Positions 2,889 through 64,000 of a DNA stretch of 64,000 bases are shown here, one piece after another. The DNA comes from an uncultured bacterium. Its GTDB lineage: Bacteria > Hydrothermota > UBA3072. The stretch's first letter is position 1. Every line of letters begins with the position of its first letter. The stretch lies in assembly GCA_964525555.1 (NCBI GenBank), contig CAZGHN010000006.1, positions 74,805 through 138,804 of the forward strand, written 5' to 3'. The notes beneath the pieces are model-generated. The model saw nothing but the letters and a program-made list of their open reading frames with translations, did no database searches and was not told the origin of the DNA. The position numbers and the translations under genes are program-made.

Positions 2889-3956
2889 ATGTCAAACGTA
2901 GCAAAAGACATAATCATTCCAACTGAGCCTAATATCTTCCGAACAATATTCCTCTATGTCGGACAAGGAGACTCTACATTGCTAGTAGTCCCTGCGGGAG
3001 ACGGGTATAAGTATGTATTAATAGATTCAAATTATGACGAAGCCGCTGGTGGTATAGATATTATCAAACTCCTTGAGAACCTTTTCGAAGAAGAAGACGA
3101 AGGTTTAGATGTTTATATAAACACCCATCCCCATAAAGATCATCTCGGAAAGGTTAGGGAAATATATGAAAAGATAGGTATTGGCCAATTATGGCATTCA
3201 GGGCACAAGCCAGGCGGCGAGCATAATGAATCTTATAAAGACCTCGAATTTGTAATCAAAAAACTTGGGGAAGAAAATGTATTTCGCCTTCGAGGTAGCA
3301 GGGAAGAAAACAAATTAGATGAAGAAAAAATTATACTAGGCGACATAAATTACAACATTTTGGGCCCTGCCGATTATGTATCCGATGAAATAGAAGACGA
3401 AAAACCCAAAGAAAGATATACTAGGATTCATGAGCAATGCGCGGTAATTCGATTTAAATACGGAGAAGAAGAGAAACAGATACTCATTACTGGAGATGCA
3501 GATTACAAAGCATGGAAAGAACATATTACTGATTACCACGCGGATAGACTTCCTTCGACAGTGTTAAATGCTGCTCACCATGGTTCAAGGTCTTTTTTCT
3601 GGAAAGATGATAATATGGAGGAAGACCCTTACAAAAAACACTTAGAGAAAATCAAACCGACTTATATTACAGTTAGTGCCCCAAAAGAAAAGGAAAGTAG
3701 GCACGGCCACCCTCATAAAGAAGCCTTGAAGTTATACAAGGAAGAAGTAGGAACTGATGATAAGGTTTTTCATTTAGGCAAGAAAAGAGAATGCATAATT
3801 GTTGATATATACGCCGATGGTGATATAGACCTCTATCCTAATGATGAGTTGGTTAAGAGATATGGAAAAAAGAACGGAGACAATGGGGGTGACGACAAAA
3901 GAACAGGGATTCCGCCAACAGTCACAAAAATCGACAAGAAACCAATGGGTACTTGA
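2889..3956 (+). CDS. metallo-beta-lactamase-fold hydrolase (ComEC/Rec2-like MBL subfamily)
   Basis: GQGDS near N-terminus and HxHxDH motif THPHKDH (nt 3122-3142); later His/Asp ligands (HSGH, TGDADY, AAHHGS); strong RBS GGGAGGG; stop overlaps next start (TGATG). Confidence 0.75.
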   Translation: MSNVAKDIIIPTEPNIFRTIFLYVGQGDSTLLVVPAGDGYKYVLIDSNYDEAAGGIDIIKLLENLFEEEDEGLDVYINTHPHKDHLGKVREIYEKIGIGQLWHSGHKPGGEHNESYKDLEFVIKKLGEENVFRLRGSREENKLDEEKIILGDINYNILGPADYVSDEIEDEKPKERYTRIHEQCAVIRFKYGEEEKQILITGDADYKAWKEHITDYHADRLPSTVLNAAHHGSRSFFWKDDNMEEDPYKKHLEKIKPTYITVSAPKEKESRHGHPHKEALKLYKEEVGTDDKVFHLGKKRECIIVDIYADGDIDLYPNDELVKRYGKKNGDNGGDDKRTGIPPTVTKIDKKPMGT

Positions 3957-6301
3957 TGGAATGGTTCGCTCGTCACACTGGCTGGTTATATAGAGAAACA
4001 AGGGAACTTTCAAAAAATTCAATCTACAGTGAACAGCACCAATTTATAGACAAAACACTCATATCTAGCGGTAATATCTTAGTCCATAAGATAAAAACAG
4101 AATACTTTCCGATTTTAATCGTATATCCTGAAGCTACACCTTATGTCCCTCCTACGATATACCTTTTAGAAAATGAGATAAGTGAGGAAACAGCGAAAGA
4201 ATATTCGGAGCTTTCTCCTGAAGAGATAAGAAAAAGCGTAAAGGATAACATTGCATTTTTCTATAGGCGACATCAGAATGAAGATGGAAGCGTATGCTTT
4301 GTTGAAAGGGGTGACTTACATGATGAAAACCCAGAGAAATATCCTATTGAAAACATAATTAAAAGGTTGAGGGTATGGCTGTCTGGAAAGAAGATACCAA
4401 AGGACAGTCGTGAAGTTGAACTGTTTTATCATTTTCCAAACAGAACTTACGAAATTCAGTATCTCCTGCCGGATTTGTTCTTTGATAGGGAAATAGTAAA
4501 AGGAAAATTCTTTGCAGGACTGTCCAGCCTTATTACAGCAAAATACTTTACAGATGGTACCGAGAAAAGGACATTCATGGGAGTAATGATAGTCGGGGAA
4601 ACACAAGGAGGTGTGTCTCTTCCTCCCAAGTATTATGTAAAAAAACAGCTAATTCTATTTACTCACATTCCGGATATAGAGCATTTGATAACAAATAATG
4701 AGGAAAAAGCAAAGAAAATAGAAAATGGGGAATTAATAGAAGGACACTGGTGGAATATTACTAAAGAGCCTCTACCCTTTTCAAAATTAAATGAGCTTGC
4801 AAAATATATCGGTAACAATGATGAGGTAAAAGGATTTGATATGATGGTAGAAAGCTTAGAATCTGAATTGAAAGCATTTGAAGACTTCATTCACGTAGGA
4901 ATCAGATTTCCCGGAAGGTATAGAGAAAGAGATTGGCAAATGTTTAGACTCAACAAAGGAAGCCGTCCACCAATTATTGTATCCCAAAGGGAAGAATTGA
5001 AACAGCGGGTGCTCGATTACTCTATCGAAGCAGTGTATCAGGAGTATCTTACTGATGATTATTTCCACATGCGAAATAAGGGAAGAGCCGATAGAAGTAT
5101 CTTGAAGAATAAAACTATATCAATTATCGGTTGTGGTGCGCTTGGCTCTGAAACTACTGATGCACTGAGTAAAGCCGGAATAGGAAGATTTATTCTAGTA
5201 GATAGAGAAGTGATGAGGGCTCACAATACTGTTAGGCATAGTCTGGGTATAAATAAAGTAAGCATACCTAAGGCATGTGGTATGGCGGAACATTTGATTC
5301 TTCACAATCCTTTTATAAATATTGAATGGGAACATGAAGACATTCTGCTTGCCAAGATCGAAGATTATTTGCCCGAGGGTGCTATTGGGGTTTCAACCAT
5401 AGCTGATGACAATATAGAAGCTTACCTTAATGAAATAGCCATGAGTCAGGGAAGAACAATCTTCTATTGTAGGGCTTTGCGTGGTGGGAAAGCCGCGCGC
5501 ATATTCAGGGTCGTTCCGCAGATAGATGCATGCAAGACTTGTTTGGGGCTTTATCTCAGAGATAAAAATCCCTTTTTTATTAATATCCCAGAAGATGAGA
5601 GTCTTCCGGTTATAACAAATGAGTGCAACAACCCAGTAAGGCCTGCGAGTGCGGCCGATATGAAAATGATCTCTGGAGTTTTTGCGAGAATCATCATTGA
5701 TTTCCTACAGGGTAAGAGAACAGATAACAACCATTGGATTTGGACATCCGAATCTCTGGAAGGATTGAATATGGAAAATTCAACATATGGGTTTATAAAT
5801 GCAGAAAGCATAGCACCACACCCTCATTGTCTTGTTTGCCAGAAATTGGAAGACGCGAAAGTATATATTTTAAAAGATGTATTGGACTTCATGAAACGGG
5901 AAGCAACAAAATCTGGTAAAATCGAAACAGGGGGAGTTTTAATTGGACACATGTTGGCTAAAGGTGAGTATAAAATTTTAAAAGCAAGTAAGCCTGGCCC
6001 AAATGCTATAAGAACCGAGAATCGCTTTGAGAAAGATGAAAAATATTGTCAAAAAGTGCTTTTGGATGCTTTTGAAGAGCTCGATGATCAAGGCCTTTAT
6101 TTAGGAGAATGGCATTATCATCCTTTGGGTAGCAACGAACCAAGCGGAATAGATATCAATAGCCTAACAGAGATAGCAATTCAAGACAACTACCGGATAG
6201 ACAAACCAATAATGATAATATTATCACCGAAGTTGGAATATGCAATTACAATTCATAATAGGTTTGGCCGATGTGTTAAAATACCCTTGAAGATTGTATG
6301 A
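3956..6301 (+). CDS. E2(UBC-like)-E1(ThiF/MoeB-like)-JAB/MPN(JAMM) triple-domain ubiquitin-like conjugation enzyme
   Basis: N-terminal UBC-like signature YPEATPYVPP...RRHQNEDGSVCF (HPN-like motif plus Cys, nt 4271-4297); central Rossmann ISIIGCGALGSETTDALSKAGIGRFILVDREV (nt ~5123-5200); C-terminal JAMM motif E...HYHPLGSNEPSGID matching HxHx7Sx2D (nt 6113-6160). ATG 3956 used; ORF track begins at TTG 3953. Confidence 0.8.
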   Translation: MEWFARHTGWLYRETRELSKNSIYSEQHQFIDKTLISSGNILVHKIKTEYFPILIVYPEATPYVPPTIYLLENEISEETAKEYSELSPEEIRKSVKDNIAFFYRRHQNEDGSVCFVERGDLHDENPEKYPIENIIKRLRVWLSGKKIPKDSREVELFYHFPNRTYEIQYLLPDLFFDREIVKGKFFAGLSSLITAKYFTDGTEKRTFMGVMIVGETQGGVSLPPKYYVKKQLILFTHIPDIEHLITNNEEKAKKIENGELIEGHWWNITKEPLPFSKLNELAKYIGNNDEVKGFDMMVESLESELKAFEDFIHVGIRFPGRYRERDWQMFRLNKGSRPPIIVSQREELKQRVLDYSIEAVYQEYLTDDYFHMRNKGRADRSILKNKTISIIGCGALGSETTDALSKAGIGRFILVDREVMRAHNTVRHSLGINKVSIPKACGMAEHLILHNPFINIEWEHEDILLAKIEDYLPEGAIGVSTIADDNIEAYLNEIAMSQGRTIFYCRALRGGKAARIFRVVPQIDACKTCLGLYLRDKNPFFINIPEDESLPVITNECNNPVRPASAADMKMISGVFARIIIDFLQGKRTDNNHWIWTSESLEGLNMENSTYGFINAESIAPHPHCLVCQKLEDAKVYILKDVLDFMKREATKSGKIETGGVLIGHMLAKGEYKILKASKPGPNAIRTENRFEKDEKYCQKVLLDAFEELDDQGLYLGEWHYHPLGSNEPSGIDINSLTEIAIQDNYRIDKPIMIILSPKLEYAITIHNRFGRCVKIPLKIV

Positions 6302-45411: not shown

Positions 45412-46716
45412 TTAGTCAGATACCTTGGGTTCCCATAATTTTAGTTCGCTTATACATGCGTCATTATATTTGGAACCCTTGTATATATCTTTAATAATGA
45501 ATTTGACGGATTTAGTAACATGTGGTTCGATTTTAATCTTTTGTAAATCCATAGTATCTTTTAAATCTAGATTCATTGTTGAGCCATCCGAGAATGATAT
45601 CTCAAGGGTTTTTATTCTATTATTGGCATTAAATATGGCTTTTGATTTAGAGTAACCTGAAATGATATCAATTCTTTCGATATTATATTCCTCATCGAAA
45701 TCCAATTGTATCCATTCGCCTATACCGTCTCCTTCCGAACCTTCAACCCAGGCTGTATTATCATCATTATCAAATATATTGTCTATATCATATAAAAACT
45801 TGTTATTTTTATCGGTAAGAGTAGAAGAGCAGGTCACTTTCATATGATGTCTTTGAATTAACCCTTCGTTTTTCTTTAATTCCGCGATAATATTGTCTAA
45901 GTCTAACTCATAACAATCGACAAGTAGCCCGTTATCTCTGTTTTTCTCAAGGAAATCTATGACTTCCGGATTACAGATTTCTTCTATGTGAGAAAGGAAA
46001 TCATCAATTGGATAATAAACATCAGGTTTATTTATACTTTCTTCGAACGAATTAAGAATAAAATTAAGATTTTTCTCGTACTCATGATTGACCAGACAAT
46101 AAGCTTCCGCAATCGCTAATTCCTCTCTTATTCCCTTTGGCTTGAAATTCTTTAAAACTTCTACAATCCTTTTATCTCGTAATTCTGCCAATCTCCATAA
46201 AATTGGTAATGTAGATATATTTTTACTTTTAAACGGACCATCGAATGGACTCTTATTATCTTTATTGTGTAATTCATTATAGAGTTCTTGCATAAGATAG
46301 TCAAAAACTTTTGGTTTATTTATCTTCTCTAAAATAGATAAAGCAATATATAATGAATATTCACCTTTTTCGATATATCTCTTAACTTTACTATATAAAT
46401 TTGATTTTCTATCTGATGATATTTCTTTTAGAATCGACTCAAATAAATGTAATAATTTCTTTTCTTCAATATCGTCAGATAGCGAAAAGCTTTCAATTAT
46501 ACTTTTACTGGCTTCATCTGTACCAATCTCAATTAAATTTTCATAAGCTTGTTTTATTTTTTGATGATCTTCTTTGGTATTGATGCCTTCTGCAAGAATA
46601 TTTCTAATAATATTAGCGTGACGTTCAACATCTAAATCTTGTGATTTGTCTCCATTTGCTGATAATTGATAGCAAGAGCTAACAAAACATAGAATTATAA
46701 GGATACACGTTTTCAT
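45412..46716 (-). CDS. lipoprotein with helical N-terminal region and C-terminal galactose-binding/discoidin-like domain
   Basis: Lipobox LCFVSSC; C-terminal NTAWVEGSEGDGIGEWIQLDF...ISELKLW. Confidence 0.45.
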   Translation of the reverse strand: MKTCILIILCFVSSCYQLSANGDKSQDLDVERHANIIRNILAEGINTKEDHQKIKQAYENLIEIGTDEASKSIIESFSLSDDIEEKKLLHLFESILKEISSDRKSNLYSKVKRYIEKGEYSLYIALSILEKINKPKVFDYLMQELYNELHNKDNKSPFDGPFKSKNISTLPILWRLAELRDKRIVEVLKNFKPKGIREELAIAEAYCLVNHEYEKNLNFILNSFEESINKPDVYYPIDDFLSHIEEICNPEVIDFLEKNRDNGLLVDCYELDLDNIIAELKKNEGLIQRHHMKVTCSSTLTDKNNKFLYDIDNIFDNDDNTAWVEGSEGDGIGEWIQLDFDEEYNIERIDIISGYSKSKAIFNANNRIKTLEISFSDGSTMNLDLKDTMDLQKIKIEPHVTKSVKFIIKDIYKGSKYNDACISELKLWEPKVSD

Positions 46717-46784: not shown

Positions 46785-47738
46785 TTATTCCCAATAATAG
46801 TTGGGTCCGGCAAGGTCGGTTTTCGGATTAAACACCCGGGTGTTATCTGTTGGTGAAAGCAAAGATTGTAATGTATTATCTTCGGTAAACATTATATAAA
46901 TGTTATCTTCTTTAGGGTCGAAATCTTTGAAGTTCGCGTAAAAAGCTTTTTCATCTTCTCTGCTCATGAAAAGTACGCATCCTGCACTTTTTTCACCAAA
47001 GTGAAATAAACATAAAGTTTTATAATTTTTACCCGAGGCTGATTGAGTCACTGTTAATGAAATTTTAGTCCCTATTTCATTTGGCCACAAGTCTTTTCCA
47101 CCACGATCAGAAGCGTCAAGATTAGCTATATAAAGTGGAACTCCCTTGTTGGTTTTTGTAAATGTATTACTTTCCTTAAACACACCAGCATATTTAACAT
47201 TTGATGGCACAGATAAATATGGCTTGCCATTTTCTGCTGATGTATTTGCTTGACTATTTACCCTAAATTGAGAATTTAAGATAAATTTGTCATCCGCTGT
47301 CAGCCTTAGATTATCACAGTAACCTCCCGAATACCCAACATAATTCCTTACTACATTAATATTATAATCGGTTAAGCCACCAAGGTCAATTCGATTAATC
47401 GGATCATTTGTCGCGTACACATAAGGATTTAGACTTTGTGGGCCGGTTAAAAATAAATCTTGAGGCATAAGCGTATGCGGATCAGGGGTTATAAATCTCC
47501 CGGTATTACTGCTATAATACCTTGCTCCAAAGTAATTGAATCCAGACTTATCTTTTTCCTTTCCGGTGAAATCCCTATTGTCTTCAAGTGTTCCTGAAGT
47601 GCTTAAATTTATACCAAAACTCTCATATGACTTCTCCTTCACAATATCATCCTCATCTGTAATCATAATGGGGGAACCCAGTCTGTCAAGATGATAGAAA
47701 TACAATTTCCCATCCTTTTCTTTGGCAAGGAGGCGGTT
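46785..47738 (-). CDS. orphan rhs C-terminal cassette (start-less): core end (YFYHLDRLGSP...DPINRIDLGGL) plus unique toxin tip
   Basis: Frame opens directly after a stop; homology to rhs begins at NRLLAKEKDGKLYFYHLDRLGSP; no ATG or RBS. Confidence 0.6.
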   Translation of the reverse strand, partial: NRLLAKEKDGKLYFYHLDRLGSPIMITDEDDIVKEKSYESFGINLSTSGTLEDNRDFTGKEKDKSGFNYFGARYYSSNTGRFITPDPHTLMPQDLFLTGPQSLNPYVYATNDPINRIDLGGLTDYNINVVRNYVGYSGGYCDNLRLTADDKFILNSQFRVNSQANTSAENGKPYLSVPSNVKYAGVFKESNTFTKTNKGVPLYIANLDASDRGGKDLWPNEIGTKISLTVTQSASGKNYKTLCLFHFGEKSAGCVLFMSREDEKAFYANFKDFDPKEDNIYIMFTEDNTLQSLLSPTDNTRVFNPKTDLAGPNYYWE

Positions 47739-47755: not shown

Positions 47756-48781
47756 TTATTTTTTAAGGTTAACCAGAAAAACTTTGTCCTTTGAATCTTT
47801 ATCACGCATTAAAAAAACTATCTTCAAACCATCAGGAGACCATTTAGCTGCATGGTTTTTCCTGTATTCTTCTTTGAACCCAAATATTTTCACTGATTTT
47901 CCGGTCTCTAAAGAATATATAAAGACTCCTTCGATAGTTGAATATACCAATTTTTTATCATCCGGAGAAAATGCGCCTGGTGCGAAACCTGGTAGGTATC
48001 GAAAATTATCATCGTTAAAACTAAATAACTTAATATATTTTAAAGTATTAACATTGTAAATCCAATATTCATAAACCGAATTCTCATTTTCAGAAGGCCG
48101 ATAACTAGCATAAAATAAGAACATATTTCCGTCCGAGGACCATACTGGATCCGGATAAGCGGATTTTAAGTCTGTAAGACCGGGAATAACTACTTTTTTG
48201 AATTTCTGCTCTTCCAGATTAAAAAACCACATTCTTTCATCGTAATTTGGTTCTCCCGTCAATGAATCCCTTGGATTACATAAGTCTATAACAATAAAAA
48301 GATCGGTCCGAGTTCCAAAATTTATAGCGCTATTATCGCTGGCATACCTTTGGAATCCCTCAGGGAGACTAACGCTTTTCTTCTCTCCTGACGGATATTT
48401 TATTCTAAGTGTATCTTTATATATCCTGACCACGTATTCCCTGCAGGGACTTACAGCCCAATCATATCCAAACTTCTTAATCGTGTCTACATCAAAGACT
48501 TCTTTTATATTCTCCTTGTTCTTACAATTATCATAGTATAATCTTATAAACTCCATTTCATTAATGCGTAAAGAATCTTTAGTTTCCAGGTCAAGAAGAT
48601 AATATTCGTTATAAGGTTTATATATGGTTTTACCAGAACCTCTATATAGGATTTTATTGGATTCAGTCCACTCATATAGGTATTCTATCTTGTCCGCTTC
48701 AAATATTGCCTGAGCTTTGTAATAGTCAGAGCTACACATACTTATGGTTAGACAGATTAAATTAAGATTAAATAGAAACAT
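47756..48781 (-). CDS. PD40/TolB-like beta-propeller lipoprotein (candidate immunity protein)
   Basis: Start at ATG 48781 with RBS GGAGGA; lipobox LTISMC; repeated SPDG/SSDG motifs. Confidence 0.55.
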   Translation of the reverse strand: MFLFNLNLICLTISMCSSDYYKAQAIFEADKIEYLYEWTESNKILYRGSGKTIYKPYNEYYLLDLETKDSLRINEMEFIRLYYDNCKNKENIKEVFDVDTIKKFGYDWAVSPCREYVVRIYKDTLRIKYPSGEKKSVSLPEGFQRYASDNSAINFGTRTDLFIVIDLCNPRDSLTGEPNYDERMWFFNLEEQKFKKVVIPGLTDLKSAYPDPVWSSDGNMFLFYASYRPSENENSVYEYWIYNVNTLKYIKLFSFNDDNFRYLPGFAPGAFSPDDKKLVYSTIEGVFIYSLETGKSVKIFGFKEEYRKNHAAKWSPDGLKIVFLMRDKDSKDKVFLVNLKK

Positions 48782-48862
48782 CTTGTTTCTCCTCCAATTT
48801 TTCATTTTTTTATATTAAAGATAATACATTTCTATACTTATTCATACTTACCTTAACTCATT

Positions 48863-50383
48863 TCACAATGGAGAAATATAAGGTTCAGGCTCGAAAGACT
48901 CAAAAATCGCTTGCGGTGGATCTTTCATTACTTCGCAATCCTCAGGCGTCTCTTCTGAATCATTCTTTTCGAGTTCATCAATTTGACCTGTTAAATCTTT
49001 CATATCATCATTTGATAACCTTATACACCCATTGGTAGCCCTCAGTTCTTCTGTAGCCTCGGAGAGTTTTCCTCCATGGATTCTAAATAAATCACGATTA
49101 GACTTCTTTGCTTCGCCTGATTTTGGGTCAAGAAGTATTTTTCCGTTAGGACCAAAAGAGCTTAATTTTTTCCCTGTCAATTTCGATGTACTTTGTCTTC
49201 CTGTTATGTCGTAAGTTCCGTAAGGGGTATCTCCATTTTCAGCCATCCTGTCTCTATGATTTCCTCTCCCTAAGGCATCCCAGCTTTTAACAACAATTCC
49301 CTGTCTATTGCGTAAGTATAACCTACCAGTCGTACTACGGTCGTCAGAAAAAGCAACATCTATAGACCATAAACCATTCGGGTCTACACGCGTAAGTGGC
49401 GCATTTAAACAATACACATAAGGATTCAGTTCCTGTGGGTTAGCTAACTTCAATCCTCCAGGCATCAATGTATGCGGATCGGGGGTCAGGAATCTTCCGA
49501 TACTACTACTATAATACCTCGCACCAAAGTAATTGAATCCAGACTTATCTTTTTCTTTACCGGTGAAATCCCGATTGTCTTCGTTAACACCCGTACTACT
49601 AAGGGCAGTACCGAAACTCTCATAAGATTTTTCCTTCACAATATCATCCTCATCTGTAATCATAATGGGGGAACCCAGTCTGTCAAGATGATAATAATAG
49701 ATGTGTCCGTCTTCATCTTTGGCAAGGAGACGGTTTCCCGCATAGAAATACTTCTTCGGAGGAGTTCGCTCTGAACCCGATTCGCATCGGGCGTTATCCA
49801 CCCATAATTTTCCGCCGCCTAACATTCTTGCTATATGAAACTTAAAATTAGCCGCGCCTGAAGGGATATCTCCAGGATTTATCGTTACTGAAATCTTCAT
49901 CCAGTTATTTGTGCCTGTTATTATAGCCGATGATTTCCCTCCGAAACTCTGGGACCAATCCGCACTCCAGAAATCGACCATTACTTTCACTCCTCCCGAT
50001 AGATTTTGAGTCTTTACCCAGACGGAAGCGGTAAAGGGTTTTTTTACCTCTGATAATGAATTATGCTGTATCATGAGTTCCGTTGTGCCCATAGATTGAA
50101 AGAATGGGGAGTATAGGCAATATTTACCTTCCTGGGATTGCTGGGAGGTCACAGACCAATTAAAATCACCTTCCCATTGTCCCCAGCCCGTCTTATCTCC
50201 TGTTTCAAATCCGGGATTTTCAAGAATATTAGGTGAATCATCATCTTCTAAGATGAGGTTGCCCGCGTTATCATGGAAATAATTAATTATTTCAGTATTC
50301 GAAGTAGGACAGTCGGTGATCTCCTGACGAATTCTCGGATATCCTTTATAGGAATATTTATAATTACACAAATATGTCCCGGA
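48863..50383 (-). CDS. orphan rhs C-terminal cassette (start-less): CBM4/9-like domain, rhs core end, L,D-transpeptidase-fold toxin tip
   Basis: Homology to full-length rhs from YKGYPRIRQEIT onward; YYYHLDRLGSP...DPNGL; tip contains HGG-x17-TNGCIRL (YkuD catalytic signature); only a TTG at 50371, no RBS. Confidence 0.6.
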   Translation of the reverse strand, partial: SGTYLCNYKYSYKGYPRIRQEITDCPTSNTEIINYFHDNAGNLILEDDDSPNILENPGFETGDKTGWGQWEGDFNWSVTSQQSQEGKYCLYSPFFQSMGTTELMIQHNSLSEVKKPFTASVWVKTQNLSGGVKVMVDFWSADWSQSFGGKSSAIITGTNNWMKISVTINPGDIPSGAANFKFHIARMLGGGKLWVDNARCESGSERTPPKKYFYAGNRLLAKDEDGHIYYYHLDRLGSPIMITDEDDIVKEKSYESFGTALSSTGVNEDNRDFTGKEKDKSGFNYFGARYYSSSIGRFLTPDPHTLMPGGLKLANPQELNPYVYCLNAPLTRVDPNGLWSIDVAFSDDRSTTGRLYLRNRQGIVVKSWDALGRGNHRDRMAENGDTPYGTYDITGRQSTSKLTGKKLSSFGPNGKILLDPKSGEAKKSNRDLFRIHGGKLSEATEELRATNGCIRLSNDDMKDLTGQIDELEKNDSEETPEDCEVMKDPPQAIFESFEPEPYISPL

Positions 50384-50405: not shown

Positions 50406-50726
50406 CTACTCGATTTCTATCTCAATCCCGCCTATTTTTCGGGAAAGGAAATTGTAGAAAAGTCCTCCTAATAATCCAAATAAAAATCCACCAGTACCAT
50501 ACATAATTGGAAATAAAATGAAGCTTACTCTTCTATATATCCAGGATAGTATTGTCCCAGACAGCATAGGAGAATATCTTCCATATTCTGTTCCTATATA
50601 TATGCCTATTATTACGCCTGGAATAAGATAAAGAAAAGCGCAAATCTTCGCTACTGAAAGTACTCCTACTTTTTTTATCTCTACTACCTTTTTACCCTGT
50701 AATTCTTCTTCTTGTAAAGCTATCAT
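50406..50726 (-). CDS. small two-TM membrane protein (candidate immunity protein)
   Basis: 106 aa with two hydrophobic helices; lies between toxin cassettes. Confidence 0.4.
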   Translation of the reverse strand: MIALQEEELQGKKVVEIKKVGVLSVAKICAFLYLIPGVIIGIYIGTEYGRYSPMLSGTILSWIYRRVSFILFPIMYGTGGFLFGLLGGLFYNFLSRKIGGIEIEIE

Positions 50727-51844: not shown

Positions 51845-53086
51845 TTACCAGTTTTGAATATCCTGAGGTATGACTTGAATATTTCCGTTATCATAAGACC
51901 CAATTGGACTATAACCACTAACTGCGTTATAATGTTGAAGGAAATCATTATCATATTTGCCTCCACCTCTTTTAATAAGACTCTTCGGATCTTTTCCTCG
52001 ATGTACTTCCTTTACAAATTTTTTCATTCTTGCAAGTTCTATCTCTGCTACCTCTGCTCCGTTCTTCTGGTCTTTATAAACTTTACTAAGATCTAGCCGG
52101 TCGTAACCCTCATAACCTGGCACTATTGCTTCCTCATGTTTGTGAGCAAACATTCCCATGCAGATTTTATCTATATCCCCTTCGCGGATTGTATTCATAG
52201 TACTAAAAAGGGTAACAATTCCCCAGAAAGCAGTAGTTGGAACGCCGGTAAATGCCGCCCCAGCCCAAAACCAATCTTCACCTGTTACAATTTCTGCGGA
52301 GGGGTAAGGTATCTCTTCAGGAGCTGTGGTTAAAGCTCCTGGGAAACGTCTCCTAAGGGTTAAAAATACACTACCCATTGGTACTATCGAACCAGCTGTT
52401 TCAGCCGTCCCTCGACCCAAAGTTACCCTATATACCATATTATCTGTAGTAGTGCGGAATAGGCCTTTCTTATCCACATAATACAACGGATCATTTGTGC
52501 AATAAACATACGGATTAAATGTTTGCGGGTCCGAAAGTTCCAAATTCCCCGGCATAAGCGTATGCGGATCAGGGGATATAAATCTTCCGGTATTACTACT
52601 ATAATACCTCGCACCAAAGTAATTGAATCCCGACTTATCTTTCTCTTTACCAGTAAACTCCCTATTATCCTCATGAGTCCCACTTGATGAGACCACCGCT
52701 CCAAACCCTTCATACGTTTTATCTTTCACAATATCATCCTCATCTGTAATCATAATGGGGGAACCGAGTCTGTCAAGATGATAATAATAGAGATGACCGT
52801 CTTCTTCTTTGGCAAGGAGACGGTTTCCCGCATAGAAATACTTCTTCGGAGGAGTTCGCTCTGAACCCGATTCGCATCGGGCGTTATCCACCCATAATTT
52901 TCCTGAACCGGATAGTTTTATAAGCATTACCTTAAGGGCTTCTACTTCCCATTCGGGCATATTTCCTTCATCTACCGTTAACAATATCTTTTGCCAGTTG
53001 TTTGTTCCTGTTATTGGATTAGATGTTATAAATTTGTTATGACCGATAGAGAGTAAGAATTGTCCAATGTCGAGATGCGACCCCAA
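51845..53086 (-). CDS. orphan rhs C-terminal cassette (start-less): partial CBM-like domain, rhs core end, unique toxin tip
   Basis: YYYHLDRLGSP...NDPLYYVDKKGL; frame opens after stop at 53087-89 (TTG only); 5' end abuts tandem repeat 53079..53151. Confidence 0.6.
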   Translation of the reverse strand: MGSHLDIGQFLLSIGHNKFITSNPITGTNNWQKILLTVDEGNMPEWEVEALKVMLIKLSGSGKLWVDNARCESGSERTPPKKYFYAGNRLLAKEEDGHLYYYHLDRLGSPIMITDEDDIVKDKTYEGFGAVVSSSGTHEDNREFTGKEKDKSGFNYFGARYYSSNTGRFISPDPHTLMPGNLELSDPQTFNPYVYCTNDPLYYVDKKGLFRTTTDNMVYRVTLGRGTAETAGSIVPMGSVFLTLRRRFPGALTTAPEEIPYPSAEIVTGEDWFWAGAAFTGVPTTAFWGIVTLFSTMNTIREGDIDKICMGMFAHKHEEAIVPGYEGYDRLDLSKVYKDQKNGAEVAEIELARMKKFVKEVHRGKDPKSLIKRGGGKYDNDFLQHYNAVSGYSPIGSYDNGNIQVIPQDIQNW

Positions 53087-53151
53087 TTACACACGACCCC
53101 AATTACACGACCCCAATTACAACCCCAATTACACACGACCCCAATTACACA
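53079..53151. repeat. tandem repeat, about five copies of a 13-16-bp unit GACCCCAATTACAC(AC)
   Basis: Direct reading of 53079-53151, ending in inverted GGGGTC. Confidence 0.8.
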
Positions 53152-53576
53152 AGGGGTCAACTTTATTGTATCCAAATTTAAAAATCACTTTGCTGTGATC
53201 AATATAAAATAATTTGCTGCGATTAATAATCCCCTCCTTAATTTAAGATTCTTTATAATTAAAAAATATGTATTTGAAAATAAATGTCAATAGTGGTATG
53301 CAGGGAATATATCGAACGAAGAATTATAAAAAATAGAAGAGGAATCACCCAGAAATGTTTTTAATATTAATTTAAACAGGAGGTAAAAAAAGATTAATTT
53401 AACCCCACCCCTTGACACTTTTCAAAGAAGGTCTGACCCTGTTGCCCCCACTGTTGCCCCCAGAGAAAAGAACGCACGTTAATCTTGACCCTAGATACAT
53501 AGATACACTCATTATACTCCAGCATCATAATCTTAAACCCTTGATTTTTATTTGTAAACCAATATTATTAAAAGAC

Positions 53577-54957: not shown

Positions 54958-55233
54958 TTACATTGTTTTAATAAAAACATAAAAAAGAAAAAATCCTATA
55001 CAAACGCAAAGAAAACCCATTACCCTAATGTATATAATATACGATTTGCTTTTCACCCAATCTACATAGGAAGAAATATCAACGTAACGATTCCGATTGA
55101 ATATAGACATATTATATATGGCTAAATTTTGAGTCTTATAGGGGAACAGCAATACTAATACCCCCACACTGATGAGAAAGAAACCGAATAACAGAACCTT
55201 CACATTAACAAGATTTTCTGAACCCATTGGCAC
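54958..55233 (-). CDS. small two-TM membrane protein immediately after rhs (candidate immunity protein)
   Basis: 91 aa, two hydrophobic helices; starts 16 nt after the rhs stop. Confidence 0.45.
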   Translation of the reverse strand: MPMGSENLVNVKVLLFGFFLISVGVLVLLFPYKTQNLAIYNMSIFNRNRYVDISSYVDWVKSKSYIIYIRVMGFLCVCIGFFLFYVFIKTM

Positions 55234-55248
55234 TCTCTCCTTTAAATC

Positions 55249-58200
55249 TTACCACTCAATTTCTTCAAACCTATAAATCTTCCCAGAATCCCAGTAATAA
55301 GTCGCACCTAACATAGGAACATAAACACCACCTTCCGTAGTCCAACCACTTCCAAAGAAATAATCTCCTTGAACGCCAATTATAGAGCCTCCGGCTGTCT
55401 CAATAGACTTTCTGGTCAGGCATTTTGAAAGTTCGTCTTCAGTTGGCGCTCGACGCCATCGGTTCATCTTACACATAGTACCCGCTGACAAACTACCAGA
55501 TAAAGGTATTAAAGATTTTCCCAGCTGTGGGCCATGTCCAAAGTACACATTCCCATACCTATCCAACTTTAAATTTATACTATATCCAATAATAGATCCT
55601 AAATTAATAGTAAGATTAAGATAATCAGGCCATTGTCCTCTCCAAAACTCATTAACAGCTTCTTGCATCGTAGGTCCTTGATAAATACCAAGATAAAAAC
55701 CCAAATAATTGAAAAAATGATACGGATCCATACTTGATGCGGTAACGATAATAGGATCCATTAAAAATATATCATCACCTATTTGGGTCGGTTCCAATCC
55801 CCATGGGTCAAAGAAATTTACTGGATCGTTATGGCAATACACATAAGGATTAAGTGTCTGCGGACGCTCTAAATTCACAAGTAGTGGATACAAGTTAATC
55901 GGATCAGGTGTAAAAAACCTACCGATATCCGCACTGTAATACCTCGCTCCAAAATAATGGAAACCGGTCTTATCTTTTTCTTTCCCAGTGAATTCACGGT
56001 TGTCATTATATGTACCATTGGACCAGCGTAAATTCCCAAACGCCTCATATAATCTTTCTTTTACAACATTACCATCTTCATCTGTTATCATAAGCGGTGA
56101 ACCGAGACGGTCAAGATGATAAAAATGAAGGTCTCCGTCATTTTCAGTCGCAAGAAGACGGTTCCCCGCATAGATATATCTTTTGGGAGCTGTAGTCTCA
56201 CTATCGTCATCCTCGAGAATGAGATTACCCGCGATATCATAGAAGTAATTAAAAATTTCCTTAGTTCCTGCCGGATACTGTGTAATTTTCTGTCTTATTC
56301 GCTGACTCCCTTTGTAATAATAATTGTACACTCTATCGGTTTCCATTGAATTAAGCGAAACAAGATTTCCATCCACATCATAGGTAAGACTGGCATCTTC
56401 CGAGACGCTGGTAAATCCATTTATCCTGCCATTTTCATCGTATGAATAGTTAAATTCACCGTCATTCTTTAACCTGTTGGTTCCGGAATAATAAGTATAA
56501 TTAGTACTATTGACGCTTTTCCTATTTCCGACCGTATCATAGGTGAAAATGAGTGTGTAACCCGGAATATAGGGATAACGACCGTAATAAATATTTTTCT
56601 TATCCTGCGTAAGTCTTCCGAGTTTATCGTATTGGTAAGATTTTACAATATCTCCAGGCCCGTCATCATGCCTGACTTCTTGATACACCTCTCCTCGTTT
56701 ATTGTAGCAAAATTGTGCTATATAGGGGTTGGCGGAAGGAATATTCTTTATTTCCATCCAGTACATCCAATTCCTTGGTCTATATGCAAATGTATCGGTA
56801 ATTCCACCGGGGAAATTTATGCCTCTTAAGAGGCCTGCTGCTGTGGATGAAAGATTGATCGTTTTGTAATCGTTAATTTCTACCGACGAGATATTGCCAA
56901 GTTTATCATATTCATATTCGACTTTGTACTCGTCCGGGTATTCCAGTTTAGTTAATCTTCCCCACAGATCGTAGGAATATTTGAATGTCTGTTCATCTAT
57001 ATCACCAATTAATGGTATTACAAGCTTTTCCCCAAGGTTTCCGAATTTATCGTAAAAATATACTTCCCTTACATTTGGATTTTGGAAACCCGTAAGTCTT
57101 CCTTTTGGAAAATTTAATCCTGAAGGTGCAGTATAAGGTGTACCTTTTATAGTATAGTTATCGTAGAAATATTCCTCCAGTGTATCAGGGAAAAACATGT
57201 AGCTTAATGAATCGTTTGTTATCACAAGGACTGATTTAATTGAATCTAGCCAGTTTTGTGATCCATGTGCAGGATAACCAGGAATAGCGGAATCAGTATG
57301 TTGGATCGCCATCCCACAAATAGTATTCCCAATATAATCCTCGCCTGGGTAAAGAAGAAAAGAATGATCTTGTTGCCAGGTTTTATTAATTGAAGAAAAG
57401 CCTTCTTGAATGGTGAACTCGCTACCAAAAGTATCGGCCGGATTTTCGAAATACACGAATAATGAACATATTCCGAAATAATTAGGAGGGTCAAATACCC
57501 AGGTTTTTGAATTAAATCTTATCCTTATCTCTTCACCTTCATCTTGCATTACATTTGCATCCTCAATGTCCCAGTATAGCCGACCAAGTTCGCGGTGGGG
57601 ATACATCCAGCTTTTACCAGGCACATACAATAAAGTGTCTTCAACCATATAGAATAGTGTATCCGGAGCAGGATCATGTATAGCCGGATTGATTTTGGTT
57701 TTTAATCTACCAAGATTATCATAAGTATAATAGATTGAATCACCGATATTTGTTCTACGAAGCTTTAAATTCCCATCAGGATAATATTCGAATGAATCTA
57801 CGCCTCTGTCAGGACCTTCTCTACGGATTAGTTCACCTAACCAGTTATAGTTAAAATCAGTGAATTTTCCTTCTGCGCCTTCAATTTCTATTAAGTTTCC
57901 GTTTGCGTCGTAATCGTAATAAGTATGATAATCGAGAGCATCTATGACCTCTACCAAGCTGCCTGTTGCATCGTTAATTAATGTGGTATAATATCCTTTC
58001 TCATCTCTTACATCTGTTATATTCCCATTATATTCATAGGTAACAAATTCGGCTCCAGGATCTTCAGAGCTTTTGGGATATTCTATCTCGGTTACTCTTC
58101 CAAGTGCATCGAAAGTCTTTTTTACTGTGTCCGCGTTTGCTGCACTGTTAAACCGTAGTGCTGTTTCCTTATTCATACGCCCATTATTATCATAAAAATA

Positions 58201-60846
58201 TTCCTTTATTACATGCTCGCCAGGATCTCCTAATACCGAATCTTGTTTAAGCCTTCCTAACTGGTCGTAACAGTAGATTATAGTGCTTGAGTCCGAAGAA
58301 GAAGAAAAAGATTTTGCTTTTGCAATCCTGTCGAAATCGTCATATTTATATTTGTTTAAAACATCGCTGCCGATTTTATCCAGAGTAAGTCTTCCGTAAC
58401 AATCATATTCGAATTCTCTTGAAACTTCATTCTTATCAGTGTGCCCTATAAGTTGCCCATCCGAATTAAAGTCGAAGTCCTCTTTTGAGCCATCAGGATA
58501 TATTACTGTGTCAGGGAATACCTCATTAGAACAGTAATCGAATTGAGATTCCTCTCCCATGTAATCTCGCATTTTTACTAGATTCCCGCAAATGTCATAC
58601 CAGTATTCCTGTGTACGGGATTCGGAATTGTTTGTCCATTCTATTTTCTTGGTGAGGTTCCCGCGGATTTTAAAATCAGCACCAAAGTCTTCAGAATCAT
58701 GAAAACCCGGGTTAGAAATGTTGCTTAAATTAGTTTCATCATACCGAAAATAAGTTTTTCCTATTCTTTGTCCTGTAATTTTAAATTTGTGTATTGCTAT
58801 CGGAAGATTGCACAACACACGATGATGGAAATTCCAACCTCCTTCTCCACCATAGCAATCCTCACACCATTCTGCAAGCTCGATATATAGAGCATCTACT
58901 TCATGTTTAAAATGCTTTATCTCTTTCCAGCTGTCATCTAAATCCAGGTCCTCGTAAGAAATTTTTTCGTTATCAACCTTATCTAAGTCTAAGCCTGGCA
59001 TAATAGCTGTAGTAAATACAGTTAGCAAGTATGGAAAATCAAATTCTTCAATACTTTCCCATCCTATACCTGTACATTCCACATCCCCTCGATAAATGTA
59101 TTCTCTTATATTACCAAACCTATCATAACTGTTATATTCGTATAGTTCTACAATATCTCCAATACCTACCTCAAGATCAGATGGATCTTTCTGTACGGCT
59201 TTGCATTTCAATGTTGGGCGTAAATGAATTGGCGGCATAAACAAATAGAGACTATCTATTGCCCAATATAAACGCGTCAATTCTAAAGTGTCTCCTTCTT
59301 TATCAAATTTTACTACCTTGTAAGGTTTACCGTAAATAAATTTCCTTGCCTTAGGGATGACCCTTTCGGAGATTACCACCTCATCTCTACCTTCATGTTC
59401 GAAAAATCTGTAATGATCCCCATTCTCCAGATATTCATTATTAATATGCCAGTAAACTATACTATCTCCTTCGGGCATAACAACCGCGCATTTTTTATAC
59501 ATGGGATAATATCCAAATATTTGCGAATTTACCCCATGAGACCAATTATCTTTAAAATCTCCATGAGTACATTCCATTTCACCTACAGAACTCACCGCGA
59601 GTGAATCATGACCTGGATAATGATATTCATACACTAAAGTTTTGGAATCCTCAGAAAGAAAAACTTCTTTCTTTTTGATTCTGCGGTATTTGGTAGGCGC
59701 GGCGATGCCTGAGCCAGACACCGTCTCATACTCATAACTGTATTCCGCGCCGTCAGGAGTGATAAATCTGACGAGTTCCCCTGTATTATTATCATAAAAA
59801 AACTGATAAGAAGGTTTCATTTTTTGCCCTTCAAAATGAAAAGATATCGAATCCAGAAGTGCGTGTTCACGAACATACCAGTATTCAATTGCATCGTCTA
59901 AATGTTTAGCCGTATAGTAGAATTTAACCTTGTAACAACCATCGTTTATCCAATGAACTAAGCTATCAATAAGATAAAACTTATCCCAACAAGGCCTATC
60001 TGGGTAAATAGGGTCTAACATTTTAGGATAAAATTTACAGTGAGAGGTAGGAGTAATAATACTATCGGGGATTCTGCCAGCCGGAGGGCAAGGGGCCGCA
60101 TCCTGCCAGGTAAATCGCACATAATTGCCATTCCTGTCCTCCATCTCTGTTAGCATATAATCAAGTCTGCGTCTCTTCTCCGGTTCTGATGGGTACTCAG
60201 GATCGGGACCGTAATCCAGTATATTCTCGAAGGTATATTTATATTCTGGCGTTGCAACAAAAGCTCTAAGATTACTTGCGAAACCAATCCAATTTTTTTC
60301 ACCTAAAACATGCCACAACCAAGCATCAAAAACATTGAAAGTTTTTTGCACAGTGTAAAACTGCCCATTAATACACGTGAAACCCACATCGCCCGTAGCA
60401 ATATTGCCAGTTCCCGGGGATCCGGGAACAGAAAATTCTCCCGGCATTACATTCCAACCTAAACCACAGGTACCTATATCCCCAGTAACCAAAAAAGCAT
60501 CATTTAGCGCCACATTAGAATGCGAATAGCAATCACCTGGAGTGAGCTGCGTCACCGATAAGGGAGAACCTCGATAGGTTAAATATACATTATAATCTTT
60601 ATTTCCTCTCATTGGCAAACTTGTAAGTTTTATTTTGAGAGACACAGTCCCGTTTGAAACATCTATATTTTCCGCAACAGTATTAGTCGATATGGTCGTT
60701 TTGTTAAAACCTACCGAGTATGCATCAAAACCGTGTGAATACATATCCTCAGTAATTTCATCAGAGGTTTTTATTTCAAGCGAATCATAAGCGGCAAGGG
60801 GGTTAGCTACGGAACTCCCAATGTTGCCAAATAAAAATACTATCAT
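55249..60846 (-). CDS. rhs: full-length RHS/YD-repeat polymorphic toxin
   Basis: 1865 aa; many YD repeats (e.g. YEYDANGNLIEI); core end FYHLDRLGSPLMITDEDG...DPWGL followed by a ~230-aa unique C-terminal tip. Confidence 0.85.
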   Translation of the reverse strand: MIVFLFGNIGSSVANPLAAYDSLEIKTSDEITEDMYSHGFDAYSVGFNKTTISTNTVAENIDVSNGTVSLKIKLTSLPMRGNKDYNVYLTYRGSPLSVTQLTPGDCYSHSNVALNDAFLVTGDIGTCGLGWNVMPGEFSVPGSPGTGNIATGDVGFTCINGQFYTVQKTFNVFDAWLWHVLGEKNWIGFASNLRAFVATPEYKYTFENILDYGPDPEYPSEPEKRRRLDYMLTEMEDRNGNYVRFTWQDAAPCPPAGRIPDSIITPTSHCKFYPKMLDPIYPDRPCWDKFYLIDSLVHWINDGCYKVKFYYTAKHLDDAIEYWYVREHALLDSISFHFEGQKMKPSYQFFYDNNTGELVRFITPDGAEYSYEYETVSGSGIAAPTKYRRIKKKEVFLSEDSKTLVYEYHYPGHDSLAVSSVGEMECTHGDFKDNWSHGVNSQIFGYYPMYKKCAVVMPEGDSIVYWHINNEYLENGDHYRFFEHEGRDEVVISERVIPKARKFIYGKPYKVVKFDKEGDTLELTRLYWAIDSLYLFMPPIHLRPTLKCKAVQKDPSDLEVGIGDIVELYEYNSYDRFGNIREYIYRGDVECTGIGWESIEEFDFPYLLTVFTTAIMPGLDLDKVDNEKISYEDLDLDDSWKEIKHFKHEVDALYIELAEWCEDCYGGEGGWNFHHRVLCNLPIAIHKFKITGQRIGKTYFRYDETNLSNISNPGFHDSEDFGADFKIRGNLTKKIEWTNNSESRTQEYWYDICGNLVKMRDYMGEESQFDYCSNEVFPDTVIYPDGSKEDFDFNSDGQLIGHTDKNEVSREFEYDCYGRLTLDKIGSDVLNKYKYDDFDRIAKAKSFSSSSDSSTIIYCYDQLGRLKQDSVLGDPGEHVIKEYFYDNNGRMNKETALRFNSAANADTVKKTFDALGRVTEIEYPKSSEDPGAEFVTYEYNGNITDVRDEKGYYTTLINDATGSLVEVIDALDYHTYYDYDANGNLIEIEGAEGKFTDFNYNWLGELIRREGPDRGVDSFEYYPDGNLKLRRTNIGDSIYYTYDNLGRLKTKINPAIHDPAPDTLFYMVEDTLLYVPGKSWMYPHRELGRLYWDIEDANVMQDEGEEIRIRFNSKTWVFDPPNYFGICSLFVYFENPADTFGSEFTIQEGFSSINKTWQQDHSFLLYPGEDYIGNTICGMAIQHTDSAIPGYPAHGSQNWLDSIKSVLVITNDSLSYMFFPDTLEEYFYDNYTIKGTPYTAPSGLNFPKGRLTGFQNPNVREVYFYDKFGNLGEKLVIPLIGDIDEQTFKYSYDLWGRLTKLEYPDEYKVEYEYDKLGNISSVEINDYKTINLSSTAAGLLRGINFPGGITDTFAYRPRNWMYWMEIKNIPSANPYIAQFCYNKRGEVYQEVRHDDGPGDIVKSYQYDKLGRLTQDKKNIYYGRYPYIPGYTLIFTYDTVGNRKSVNSTNYTYYSGTNRLKNDGEFNYSYDENGRINGFTSVSEDASLTYDVDGNLVSLNSMETDRVYNYYYKGSQRIRQKITQYPAGTKEIFNYFYDIAGNLILEDDDSETTAPKRYIYAGNRLLATENDGDLHFYHLDRLGSPLMITDEDGNVVKERLYEAFGNLRWSNGTYNDNREFTGKEKDKTGFHYFGARYYSADIGRFFTPDPINLYPLLVNLERPQTLNPYVYCHNDPVNFFDPWGLEPTQIGDDIFLMDPIIVTASSMDPYHFFNYLGFYLGIYQGPTMQEAVNEFWRGQWPDYLNLTINLGSIIGYSINLKLDRYGNVYFGHGPQLGKSLIPLSGSLSAGTMCKMNRWRRAPTEDELSKCLTRKSIETAGGSIIGVQGDYFFGSGWTTEGGVYVPMLGATYYWDSGKIYRFEEIEW

Positions 60847-62200: not shown

Positions 62201-62683
62201 TTATTTATACACTAAAATAAAAATCAAAATCTCCCAGAAAGGTACAGTTAAAATCAAAACAACGCTGGAGATCCTTAACCTTTTATTTTTTCTTTCTATT
62301 TCCTCCGTTATTTTTTCCCTTTTGCTTAACACTTCCGAAGAAAAATGATAACAAGAAATTCCACTTAAAAAAAGTGCTATGGTTAAAGGAAATATATACA
62401 TCATGAAACTTCCCGGAATATTACCGAACTCGGGGACAATATCTAATATCTCCTCAACACATATCAAAAGTATGATGTAAATAACCCCTATCGCCATAGG
62501 TATACTAACCAATTTATTGGTTATCCTTAAAAACTTTTTTACTTTTTCATTCCCTATAAAAGGAAAGAAAGGACGATATAGTTTCACAACAGCACCTACG
62601 TATTTATCTGCAAAGAAAAAGAAAGTTAAAAATAAAAGATAGAAACAGTAAATCCCTAAAGCGGCTAAGACTTTAATTGCCAT
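62201..62683 (-). CDS. four-TM membrane protein immediately after an rhs toxin tip (candidate immunity protein)
   Basis: 160 aa with several hydrophobic helices; begins 4 nt after the stop of 62687.. Confidence 0.5.
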   Translation of the reverse strand: MAIKVLAALGIYCFYLLFLTFFFFADKYVGAVVKLYRPFFPFIGNEKVKKFLRITNKLVSIPMAIGVIYIILLICVEEILDIVPEFGNIPGSFMMYIFPLTIALFLSGISCYHFSSEVLSKREKITEEIERKNKRLRISSVVLILTVPFWEILIFILVYK

Positions 62684-62686
62684 TTA

Positions 62687-64000
62687 TTATTTTCCCTCCC
62701 ATACAATAAAGGCAGAGGCGCCTAAACCACCGACAACAAAGACTCCTGACTCCACATAAAATCCACTCCACCATGGGTTAGCGGGACCCCAACCCACCTG
62801 AGTACCTAAAACAAATCCTGCTTGAACACTTATGTTCAAACCAGGAGAAGGCTCCTTATAGCCATCATTTACCATTACCATGGCACCCGGAGGTATACTT
62901 ACACTTGGAGAGATCCCAAGATAATAATATGGTTTTCCATCGTCAGTGATTATTTTTCCTCCAGTAATTATTACTACACTTACACCTAAATCTACGTAAT
63001 CAACCGAAGGATCCTCCTCAAAGTGCTTGGCAAACGTTGCCCAGTCTGGATCCTTTTTTGTATCGTCTTGACCCTTTTCATTAAAAACACCCGTCTGAGC
63101 ATTAGTACTGGTATTATCAGCAGCAACAAAAGCCCAGGAAGGGTTATCGAAATACATAATTGAACCAGACCCATACTGATTAATTATATCCTGCTGCCTT
63201 TTATAATCCCAATACGCAATGGGATCTTCTTCATAGCTTATTGGTGACTCTTGTAATCCTAATAAATCCACATATTTAAGTGGGCTATTTCTACAGTAAA
63301 TATACGGATTTAAACTCTGTGGAATTGCCAATGTAAGCCCAGCGGGCGTAAGCGTATGCGGATCAGGGATCAGGAATCTTCCGATGTCGCCGCTGTAATA
63401 TCTCGCGCCGAAGTAATGAAATCCTGTCGGGTCTTTTTCCTTTCCCGTGAATTCTCGGTTATCTTCGAGTGTACCTGAAGAAGATACTAAGTTACCAAAT
63501 GCTTCGTATTCTCTCCGTTTTACCACAATACCATTCTCATCTGTAATCATAATCGGAGAACCAAGACGGTTAAGATGATAGAAATGAAGCTCTCCGTCGA
63601 TTTCGGATGCAAGGAGACGGTTTCCAGCATAATAGTATTTCGTTTCAGGTGTTCGCTCGGTTCCCGATTCACATCTGGCGTTATCAACCCATAGTTGTCC
63701 ACTTCCTAACATTCTTGCTATATGAAATTTGAAATTAACCGCGCCGGAAGGTATATCTCCAGGATTTATCGTTACTGAAATCTTTTGCCAGTTATGTGTG
63801 CCTGTTATTATTGCCGATGATTTGCCTCCATAACTCTGAGACCAATCCTCACTCCAGAAATCGACCATTACCTTCACTCCTCCCGATAAATTCTTAGTCT
63901 TTACCCAGACGGAAGCGGTAAAGGATTTTTTTACCTTTGATAATGAAAATTGCTGTATCATGAGTTCCATTGTGCCCATCGTTTGAAAATATGGGGAGTA
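62687..64000 (-). CDS. rhs: RHS toxin C-terminal region (CBM4/9-like domain, core end, unique tip); N-terminus beyond window end
   Basis: Frame open to nt 64000 (YSPYFQTMGTMELMIQQ parallels the orphan cassettes); HFYHLNRLGSP...VDLLGL then a unique ~200-aa tip. Confidence 0.7.
   Translation of the reverse strand, partial: YSPYFQTMGTMELMIQQFSLSKVKKSFTASVWVKTKNLSGGVKVMVDFWSEDWSQSYGGKSSAIITGTHNWQKISVTINPGDIPSGAVNFKFHIARMLGSGQLWVDNARCESGTERTPETKYYYAGNRLLASEIDGELHFYHLNRLGSPIMITDENGIVVKRREYEAFGNLVSSSGTLEDNREFTGKEKDPTGFHYFGARYYSGDIGRFLIPDPHTLTPAGLTLAIPQSLNPYIYCRNSPLKYVDLLGLQESPISYEEDPIAYWDYKRQQDIINQYGSGSIMYFDNPSWAFVAADNTSTNAQTGVFNEKGQDDTKKDPDWATFAKHFEEDPSVDYVDLGVSVVIITGGKIITDDGKPYYYLGISPSVSIPPGAMVMVNDGYKEPSPGLNISVQAGFVLGTQVGWGPANPWWSGFYVESGVFVVGGLGASAFIVWEGK

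Follow-up and report, generated by a model that had tools for sequence, protein, structure and literature searches.

In this 64,000-nucleotide stretch of DNA from an uncultured bacterium of the Hydrothermota (hereafter the window), the region from 44 to 64 kb is taken up by an rhs polymorphic-toxin locus in which two full-length rhs genes are accompanied by three displaced 3' (orphan) cassettes. Here we focus on a domain of 154 amino acids (aa), predicted to be a beta-jelly roll and related to carbohydrate-binding modules (CBMs), that is carried by one orphan cassette and one full-length gene just before the conserved Rhs core end. By analogy with better-known systems, we consider it fairly probable that this jelly roll sits outside the YD-repeat shell near the core-end pole and binds a cell-surface glycan, as the adhesion or receptor module of an Rhs protein without adaptor domains for the type VI secretion system (T6SS). 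The parts of the locus needed to follow the argument are the following.

48863..50371, minus strand: orphan rhs cassette 1, an open reading frame (ORF) with a translation of 502 aa
49772..50233, minus strand: the CBM4/9/16/22/61-type insert of orphan 1 (aa 47-200, 154 aa), PNILENPGFETG...KLWVDNARCESGS
49370..49771, minus strand: last YD hairpins and Rhs core end of orphan 1 (aspartyl autoprotease region, to DPNGL), directly downstream of the insert
51845..53086, minus strand: orphan cassette 2, truncated at its 5' end
52862..53030, minus strand: CBM remnant at the 5' end of orphan 2, about the last 55 aa (ITGTNNWQKI...LWVDNARCESGS), from a different CBM variant
46785..47705, minus strand: orphan cassette 3, which begins at the core end (MYFYHLDRLGSP)
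55249..60846, minus strand: the complete rhs, 1865 aa (product P0169)
56170..56229, minus strand: empty insertion site in the complete rhs, GNLILEDDDS/ETTAPKRYIY, with the junction between bases 56200 and 56199
62687..64000, minus strand: 3' end of the upstream full-length rhs (part of the CBM, core end, and glycine-rich toxin tip); the gene exits the window
63659..64000, minus strand: CBM insert of the upstream rhs, of which the C-terminal 114 aa (YSPYFQ...CESGT) are covered; the window end falls inside the domain

Orphan 1 opens with 46 aa of YD core (...IRQEITDCPTSNTEIINYFHDNAGNLILEDDDS), followed by the insert, ERTPPKKYFYAGNRLLAKDEDGHIYYYHLDRLGSP, the core end up to RVDPNGL (aa 328-334), and a toxin tip. 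The insert, which ends in LWVDNARCESGS, is preceded by ...NAGNLILEDDDS and followed by ERTPPKKYFYAGNRLL...YYHLDRLGSP, with ...NYFHDNAGNLILEDDDS and ERTPPKKYFYAGNRLLAKDEDGHIYYYHLDRLGSP as its immediate flanks. A preliminary description of the sequence had put a CBM-like domain between the YD-repeat region and YYHLDRLGSP, and it is indeed found there. From the insert it is 25 residues to the YYHLDRLGSP motif of the core end and about 130 to the DPxGL cleavage site; judging from this order, autoproteolysis would leave the insert on the shell.

In the complete rhs, the corresponding flanks adjoin directly, and the CBM family hidden Markov model (HMM) gives no match on its product, in agreement with the earlier remark that this gene is without the domain. 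Sequence comparison thus identifies the block as a clean insertion/deletion polymorphism between rhs paralogues. Two other parts of the preliminary description stand in a narrower form. The orphan cassettes were said to carry the domain, which is true of orphan 1 in full, of orphan 2 only for the C-terminal remnant, and of orphan 3 not at all, the insert being absent there. The upstream rhs was said to carry NPGFETG...WVDNARCE; it does so in its whole product P0002 (2073 aa), retrieved by an exhaustive protein search and identical to the window fragment over its C-terminal 437 aa, where the entire insert occupies aa 1597-1750, whereas the NPGFETG of this gene lies outside the window. As a separate observation, an irregular tandem repeat of ACCCCAATTACAC(AC)G (minus strand GTGTAATTGGGGTCGT), in about five copies, is found at 53064-53166, exactly on the 5' truncation boundary of orphan 2 and inside what would be its CBM.

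Taken alone, the insert matches Pfam CBM_4_9 (PF02018) with E=2.3e-5 and 25.2 bits over profile positions 2-120 of 136; within the whole orphan 1 ORF, the PF02018 score is 21.9 bits. On their own, 19 of 40 homologous domains match CBM_4_9 at E<=1e-3 (the best at 3.5e-12), and a precomputed PF02018 match exists for eight of 12 further relatives. By profile comparison, the insert family as a whole thus belongs to CBM_4_9, with the single sequence as a near miss. The reach of the searches depended on their kind: an exhaustive search of representatives with the insert yielded 272 homologues at E<=1e-3, while a word-indexed homology search with the insert alone and a comparison of the single sequence with PDB sequences both gave no match, and a scan of species-representative genomes returned only three distant Bacteroidales matches to the core end. 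A family profile built from an alignment of 40 domain sequences found, in the PDB, CBM16 (1.6e-11), CBM22 (8.8e-11), CBM61 (1.8e-10), CBM70 (1.2e-9), and CBM4 (1.3e-3), as well as phage fibre and tailspike domains (6e-13 to 7e-7). Weak NCBIfam matches of the insert went to two other jelly-roll models, the gene transfer agent (GTA) head-spike fibre and NTTRR-F1. The resemblance to CBM families 4/9 first read from the letters is therefore borne out by HMM searches, which found similarity to CBM and other jelly-roll models alike. A chance match was rejected in view of the 272 homologues and the confident structure prediction.

That prediction, made with AlphaFold2 (AF2) from an alignment of homologues, is all-beta with a predicted local distance difference test score (pLDDT) of 93.2 and a predicted template modelling score (pTM) of 0.88. 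The top Foldseek matches of the model are CBM61, CBM16, CBM22, CBM70, and CBM4-2, together with the Klebsiella K2 and CBA120 tailspike domains (E 8e-9 to 1e-6 for the group), and its structural neighbours also include domains from the Vip3, Cry, and CDTb toxins. Profile and model combined make the assignment to the beta-jelly-roll fold secure. CBM_4_9 and CBM16/61/22/4/70, its closest families, are beta-jelly-roll binders of glycan chains (type B). The insert differs from them in having no glycoside hydrolase attached and in being placed inside a YD-repeat shell, and its sequence identity to solved CBMs is only 12-20%.

To place the insert in its shell, we rely on an AF2 model of P0002 aa 701-1885 (1185 aa; mean pLDDT 74, pTM 0.71), in which low confidence falls mostly in a separate mid-shell segment. 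Here the insert forms the same jelly roll (pLDDT 71-94) and again matches CBM16. It is bounded by the strands NLILEE and TKYYYA, and its modelled position is thus an inter-hairpin loop, namely that between the penultimate and last YD hairpins, and not the tight D-x-x-G turn of a YD hairpin. With Foldseek, the shell model matches T6SS Rhs cores, Tse15, Tse5, RhsA, TcdB2-TccC3, teneurins, and SGS1 (E 1e-39 to 1e-21; 1.6e-21 for SGS1, 8FJP). In sequence and model, we thus find a folded non-YD domain inserted between YD repeats, as in the decorated shells of the SGS1/teneurin type.

Quite apart from the CBM, which the complete rhs lacks, each of the two full-length Rhs proteins has a further non-YD insert of 170-210 aa in its mid-shell, the two being mutually dissimilar. 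CBMs can be ruled out for both, with an hhalign probability of 0.1% against the CBM profile.

57181-57690, minus strand: mid-shell insert of the complete rhs (aa 1053-1222), non-YD
aa 1122-1334 of P0002: mid-shell insert of the upstream rhs, rich in short D/I/T repeats (IEDIDSTIIDIDSTFIRMDSIIDHIEYVIDHID), pLDDT about 25

What would such a module do? Phage tailspikes and the Vip3, Cry, and CDTb toxins use CBM-like jelly rolls to bind their receptors. In the structures at hand (Klebsiella K2-2 tailspike protein (TSP) 8IQ5, CBA120 TSP4 5W6H, mycobacteriophage Douge gp20 8ZDO, Vip3/Cry/CDTb), the jelly rolls are terminal modules of fibres or toxins, in contrast to the loop insertion into a YD shell described here, and the likeness is to be taken as a functional analogy only. 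A nearer comparison is mosquito SGS1, likewise a Rhs/YD shell with a CBM formed by an inserted segment. Cryo-electron microscopy (cryo-EM) of SGS1 placed its CBM and a lectin carbohydrate-recognition domain (CRD), both from segments inserted in the Rhs/YD repeats, on the shell exterior, where they were proposed to be receptor domains (PMC9935623). Accordingly drawn, the mechanism we propose would have the domain project from the shell exterior near the pole that the core end closes and bind a glycan on a cell surface, the likeliest ligand being an envelope polysaccharide of the target cell; it would act as adhesion or receptor module for a toxin that has no T6SS delivery domain. In these Rhs proteins, no delivery domain, whether PAAR, VgrG, or another, is detected by Pfam, and both N-termini are short and hydrophobic. 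A glycan-binding, surface-exposed receptor determinant is, by this analogy, plausible.

Critically speaking, several points weigh against this proposal. The single insert sequence misses the PF02018 gathering score (25.9 bits) by 0.7 bit. Across the 40 homologues, N9, E13, and D149 are invariant, and N5, F12, G39, W114, and P127 are at least 90% conserved; the insert has the N-terminal NPxFE motif as NPGFE and the C-terminal acidic motif as WVDN, and the three invariant residues belong to the NPGFE and C-terminal Asp motifs, which would make them fold-defining and not ligand-binding. In the HMMER alignment to CBM16-1, Trp20 has an equivalent (the W of GDKTGW), whereas Trp125 aligns to Met and Gln121 to His, which leaves only one of the two CBM16 stacking tryptophans, the N-terminal one, with a counterpart. 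The export route of these Rhs proteins is a difficulty in a diderm, and LolCE, PorA, topoisomerase I, and ClpB genes elsewhere in the window indicate, by their presence, a chromosomal region of a diderm anaerobe. Finally, neither a start codon nor a promoter of its own is evident for orphan 1, whose core homology starts right after an in-frame stop, and this copy may, in its present form, never be expressed.

The points concerning residues lend themselves to another explanation, namely that the exterior jelly roll binds a protein (an outer-membrane receptor, a secretion adaptor, or another Rhs subunit) or is purely architectural. The missing second stacking tryptophan and the fold-defining look of the invariant residues speak for it, as does the repeated recruitment of jelly rolls for non-glycan roles. 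We nevertheless regard it as unlikely: at E<1e-6, the family profile matches only CBMs and glycan-targeting phage fibres, and half of the relatives pass as CBM_4_9.

A different possibility is that the module holds the Rhs protein on the producer's surface by binding the producer's own envelope glycan, much as in wall-associated, contact-dependent toxins of the WapA type, with no part in target recognition. In both full-length Rhs proteins, a short hydrophobic N-terminus leads directly into the plug-like motif NGNLxLKIKLLSLPMRG. With such N-termini and no T6SS domains, contact-dependent delivery would need retention at the surface, and CBM-type modules are common anchors of secreted enzymes on cell surfaces. 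On the other hand, the paralogous rhs at this locus has the same N-terminus yet lacks the insert, and the slots that the domain can fill are variably occupied in close relatives (see below), a pattern that suits target-specificity modules better than a housekeeping anchor. Retention on the producer is, in our judgment, quite improbable.

Whether the domain has any present function at all can be asked of the orphan copies, which might be decaying leftovers of displaced rhs 3' ends with the domain as a passenger. Orphan 2 holds only a truncated remnant, and the lack of an obvious start codon or promoter in orphan 1 points the same way. In orphan 1, however, the frame is intact over 502 codons, and its CBM part compared with that of the upstream rhs gives dN/dS 0.20 (dS 0.39, 119 codons), whereas synonymous sites are saturated in the core end. 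The CBM insert is under purifying selection. Intact copies of the domain are also present in P0002 and many further Rhs proteins, all of full length, and its fold prediction is confident. For orphan 1, pseudogene decay was rejected on the strength of dN/dS and fold prediction, and a passenger without function appears highly improbable overall.

The domain recurs in other Rhs proteins. We counted its recurrence among the 150 best representatives by matching regular expressions and checking positions against the domain envelope. Of these proteins, 22 have the core-end motif of Rhs or five or more YD-type repeats. In 13 of the 22, which fall into three sequence-distinct lineages, the domain lies at most 25 aa from the core-end motif, and several of the 13 are fragments of about 500 aa laid out like orphan 1; in four others of the 22, it sits mid-shell. 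The lineage patterns are NAGNLIL-[CBM]-YxYAGNRLL, DEQGRVxxET-[CBM]-KYxYVNNxHL, and, one loop later, ...HVAMDLP-[CBM]-YYYHTDYLGSP.

For comparison, 38 Rhs sequences were aligned. A second site of this kind is seen among close relatives of P0002. One loop earlier than the CBM (slot 2), between YKYYYKGxQRIREE and YNYFYDNAGNLI, a CBM-related beta-sandwich of about 105 aa can be found (slot 1), which matches only the C-terminal two-thirds of the CBM profile. Most of the 13 closest relatives of P0002 have slot 1 filled (P0164-P0168, P0170-P0173, P0029, and P0163), and in P0029, P0163, and P0173 slot 2 is filled as well; slot 2 alone is filled in P0002 and orphan 1, and neither slot in the complete rhs of the window. 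Close relatives therefore show every occupancy: none, slot 1 only, slot 2 only, and both. As consecutive inter-hairpin loops fall on the same edge of the beta-strip, the geometry of the YD shell would make the two slots neighbours on its last turn. The gene for one of these relatives, P0172 (GCA_964606065.1, locus L004 4199-5980), has a secretin gene and pseudopilin-like (N_methyl) genes as neighbours at about 2 kb, a proximity that may or may not be relevant to the way Rhs proteins of the signal-peptide type cross the outer membrane.

The CBM-coding DNA would also take part in recombination. In a sliding-window comparison of orphan 1 (49370-50113) with the upstream rhs (63277-64000), the two are 85-93% identical in nucleotides throughout the CBM (0.70-0.95 at third positions) but only 45-75% (about 0.45 at third positions) from about aa 205 on. 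Given this sharp drop directly after the domain, the CBM DNA is part of the homogenised core common to the two copies, with the divergence or recombination boundary at its 3' edge. In the rhs family here, the boundary thus coincides with the edge of an accessory domain and precedes the core end, as opposed to the classical rhs breakpoint at DPxGL. Orphans 1 and 2 are 83% identical over the core end while their CBM sequences differ, which points to past exchanges with breakpoints in or beside the domain. Because orphan 1 keeps CBM DNA as its upstream homology arm, recombination with it would swap the toxin tip only into a CBM-bearing rhs, and the same event could exchange part of the CBM along with the tip.

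Taking these observations one step further, the loops before the core end might form a modular two-slot receptor region in which the slot-2 CBM doubles as homology arm, so that recognition and toxin/immunity are exchanged together. This would resemble the swapping of receptor-binding domains in CdiA and phage tail fibres and, if true, would provide T6SS-independent Rhs toxins with a mechanism of target recognition; we put it forward as a speculative extension that may well not hold.

CBM-type jelly rolls, Rhs toxins with orphan cassettes, and a CBM in a YD shell (SGS1) are each known already. In the open-access literature, we found no description of a CBM4/9-type module in the loop immediately before a bacterial Rhs core end, of two-slot variability among close Rhs relatives, or of a CBM module as homology arm of an orphan cassette, and such silence is weak evidence of novelty. 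Among the solved bacterial structures aligned (TccC3 4O9X, RhsA 7Q97, Tse5 8CP6, and RhsP 8H8A), none has a folded domain in the pre-core-end loop, and their sequence alignments to orphan 1 begin downstream of the insert. Little is understood of how Rhs toxins locate their targets and attach themselves to them in the absence of T6SS adaptor domains. If our proposal is true, a glycan-binding module that is built into the shell, variable between close relatives, and carried by orphan cassettes would be a concrete, testable candidate for the recognition step, and the principle of the decorated shell, known from cryo-EM of mosquito SGS1 and teneurins, would extend to bacteria.

In other respects, the locus is that of classical Rhs toxins, with a YD shell, a DPxGL core end, a variable tip, a small immunity-like gene downstream, and displaced 3' cassettes. 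Orphan 1 matches TIGR03696 Rhs_assc_core at 1.1e-18 as well as Pfam RHS, and its core end aligns with that of TccC3 through RYY..GR(F/W)L..DP and DPxGL, up to DPDGL. Pfam RHS_repeat is found in the complete rhs at 1.3e-22, and P0002 carries PF05593 and PF25023. The core end is shared at 71-83% nucleotide identity among the three orphan cassettes, all five rhs copies diverge after the G-L of DPxGL, and a distinct ORF of its own follows each orphan cassette. YD-repeat shell, DPxGL core end with variable tip, and orphan 3' cassettes together mark these genes as Rhs toxins; the small ORFs after the orphan cassettes would be their immunity genes. For orphan 1, tip and neighbour are as follows.

48866-49369, minus strand: toxin tip of orphan 1, Pfam YkuD (L,D-transpeptidase catalytic domain) 1.1e-8 and Tlde1_dom 4.3e-6
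47756..48805, minus strand: gene next downstream of orphan 1, encoding a PD40 beta-propeller (Pfam PD40 4.3e-7) whose N-terminus is lipoprotein-like

The Tlde1 family includes a peptidoglycan-targeting T6SS effector. From their domain matches, the PD40 protein is likely the candidate periplasmic immunity partner of the YkuD/Tlde1-like tip, and the pair would fit an antibacterial toxin acting in the periplasm.

Small, strongly hydrophobic ORFs are found directly downstream of the glycine-rich tips of both full-length rhs genes (62201-62683 and 54958-55233, both minus strand), and orphan 2 is followed by a PD40 ORF and then by another such hydrophobic ORF (50406-50726, minus strand). None of the three has a Pfam match, and their composition suggests that they are probably membrane immunity proteins. 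Behind orphan 3, an ORF (45412-46716, minus strand) carries a C-terminal "NAD glycohydrolase translocation F5/8 type C" domain (Pfam 2.2e-39), another galactose-binding-like jelly roll within the locus. Far from it, at 3953-6301 on the plus strand, a gene for 782 aa combines E1/ThiF-like and JAB-like parts; its product matches the NCBIfam models "anti-phage 6A-MBL system cap2_3" and CBASS Cap3 below their cut-offs and is possibly a defence-system protein.

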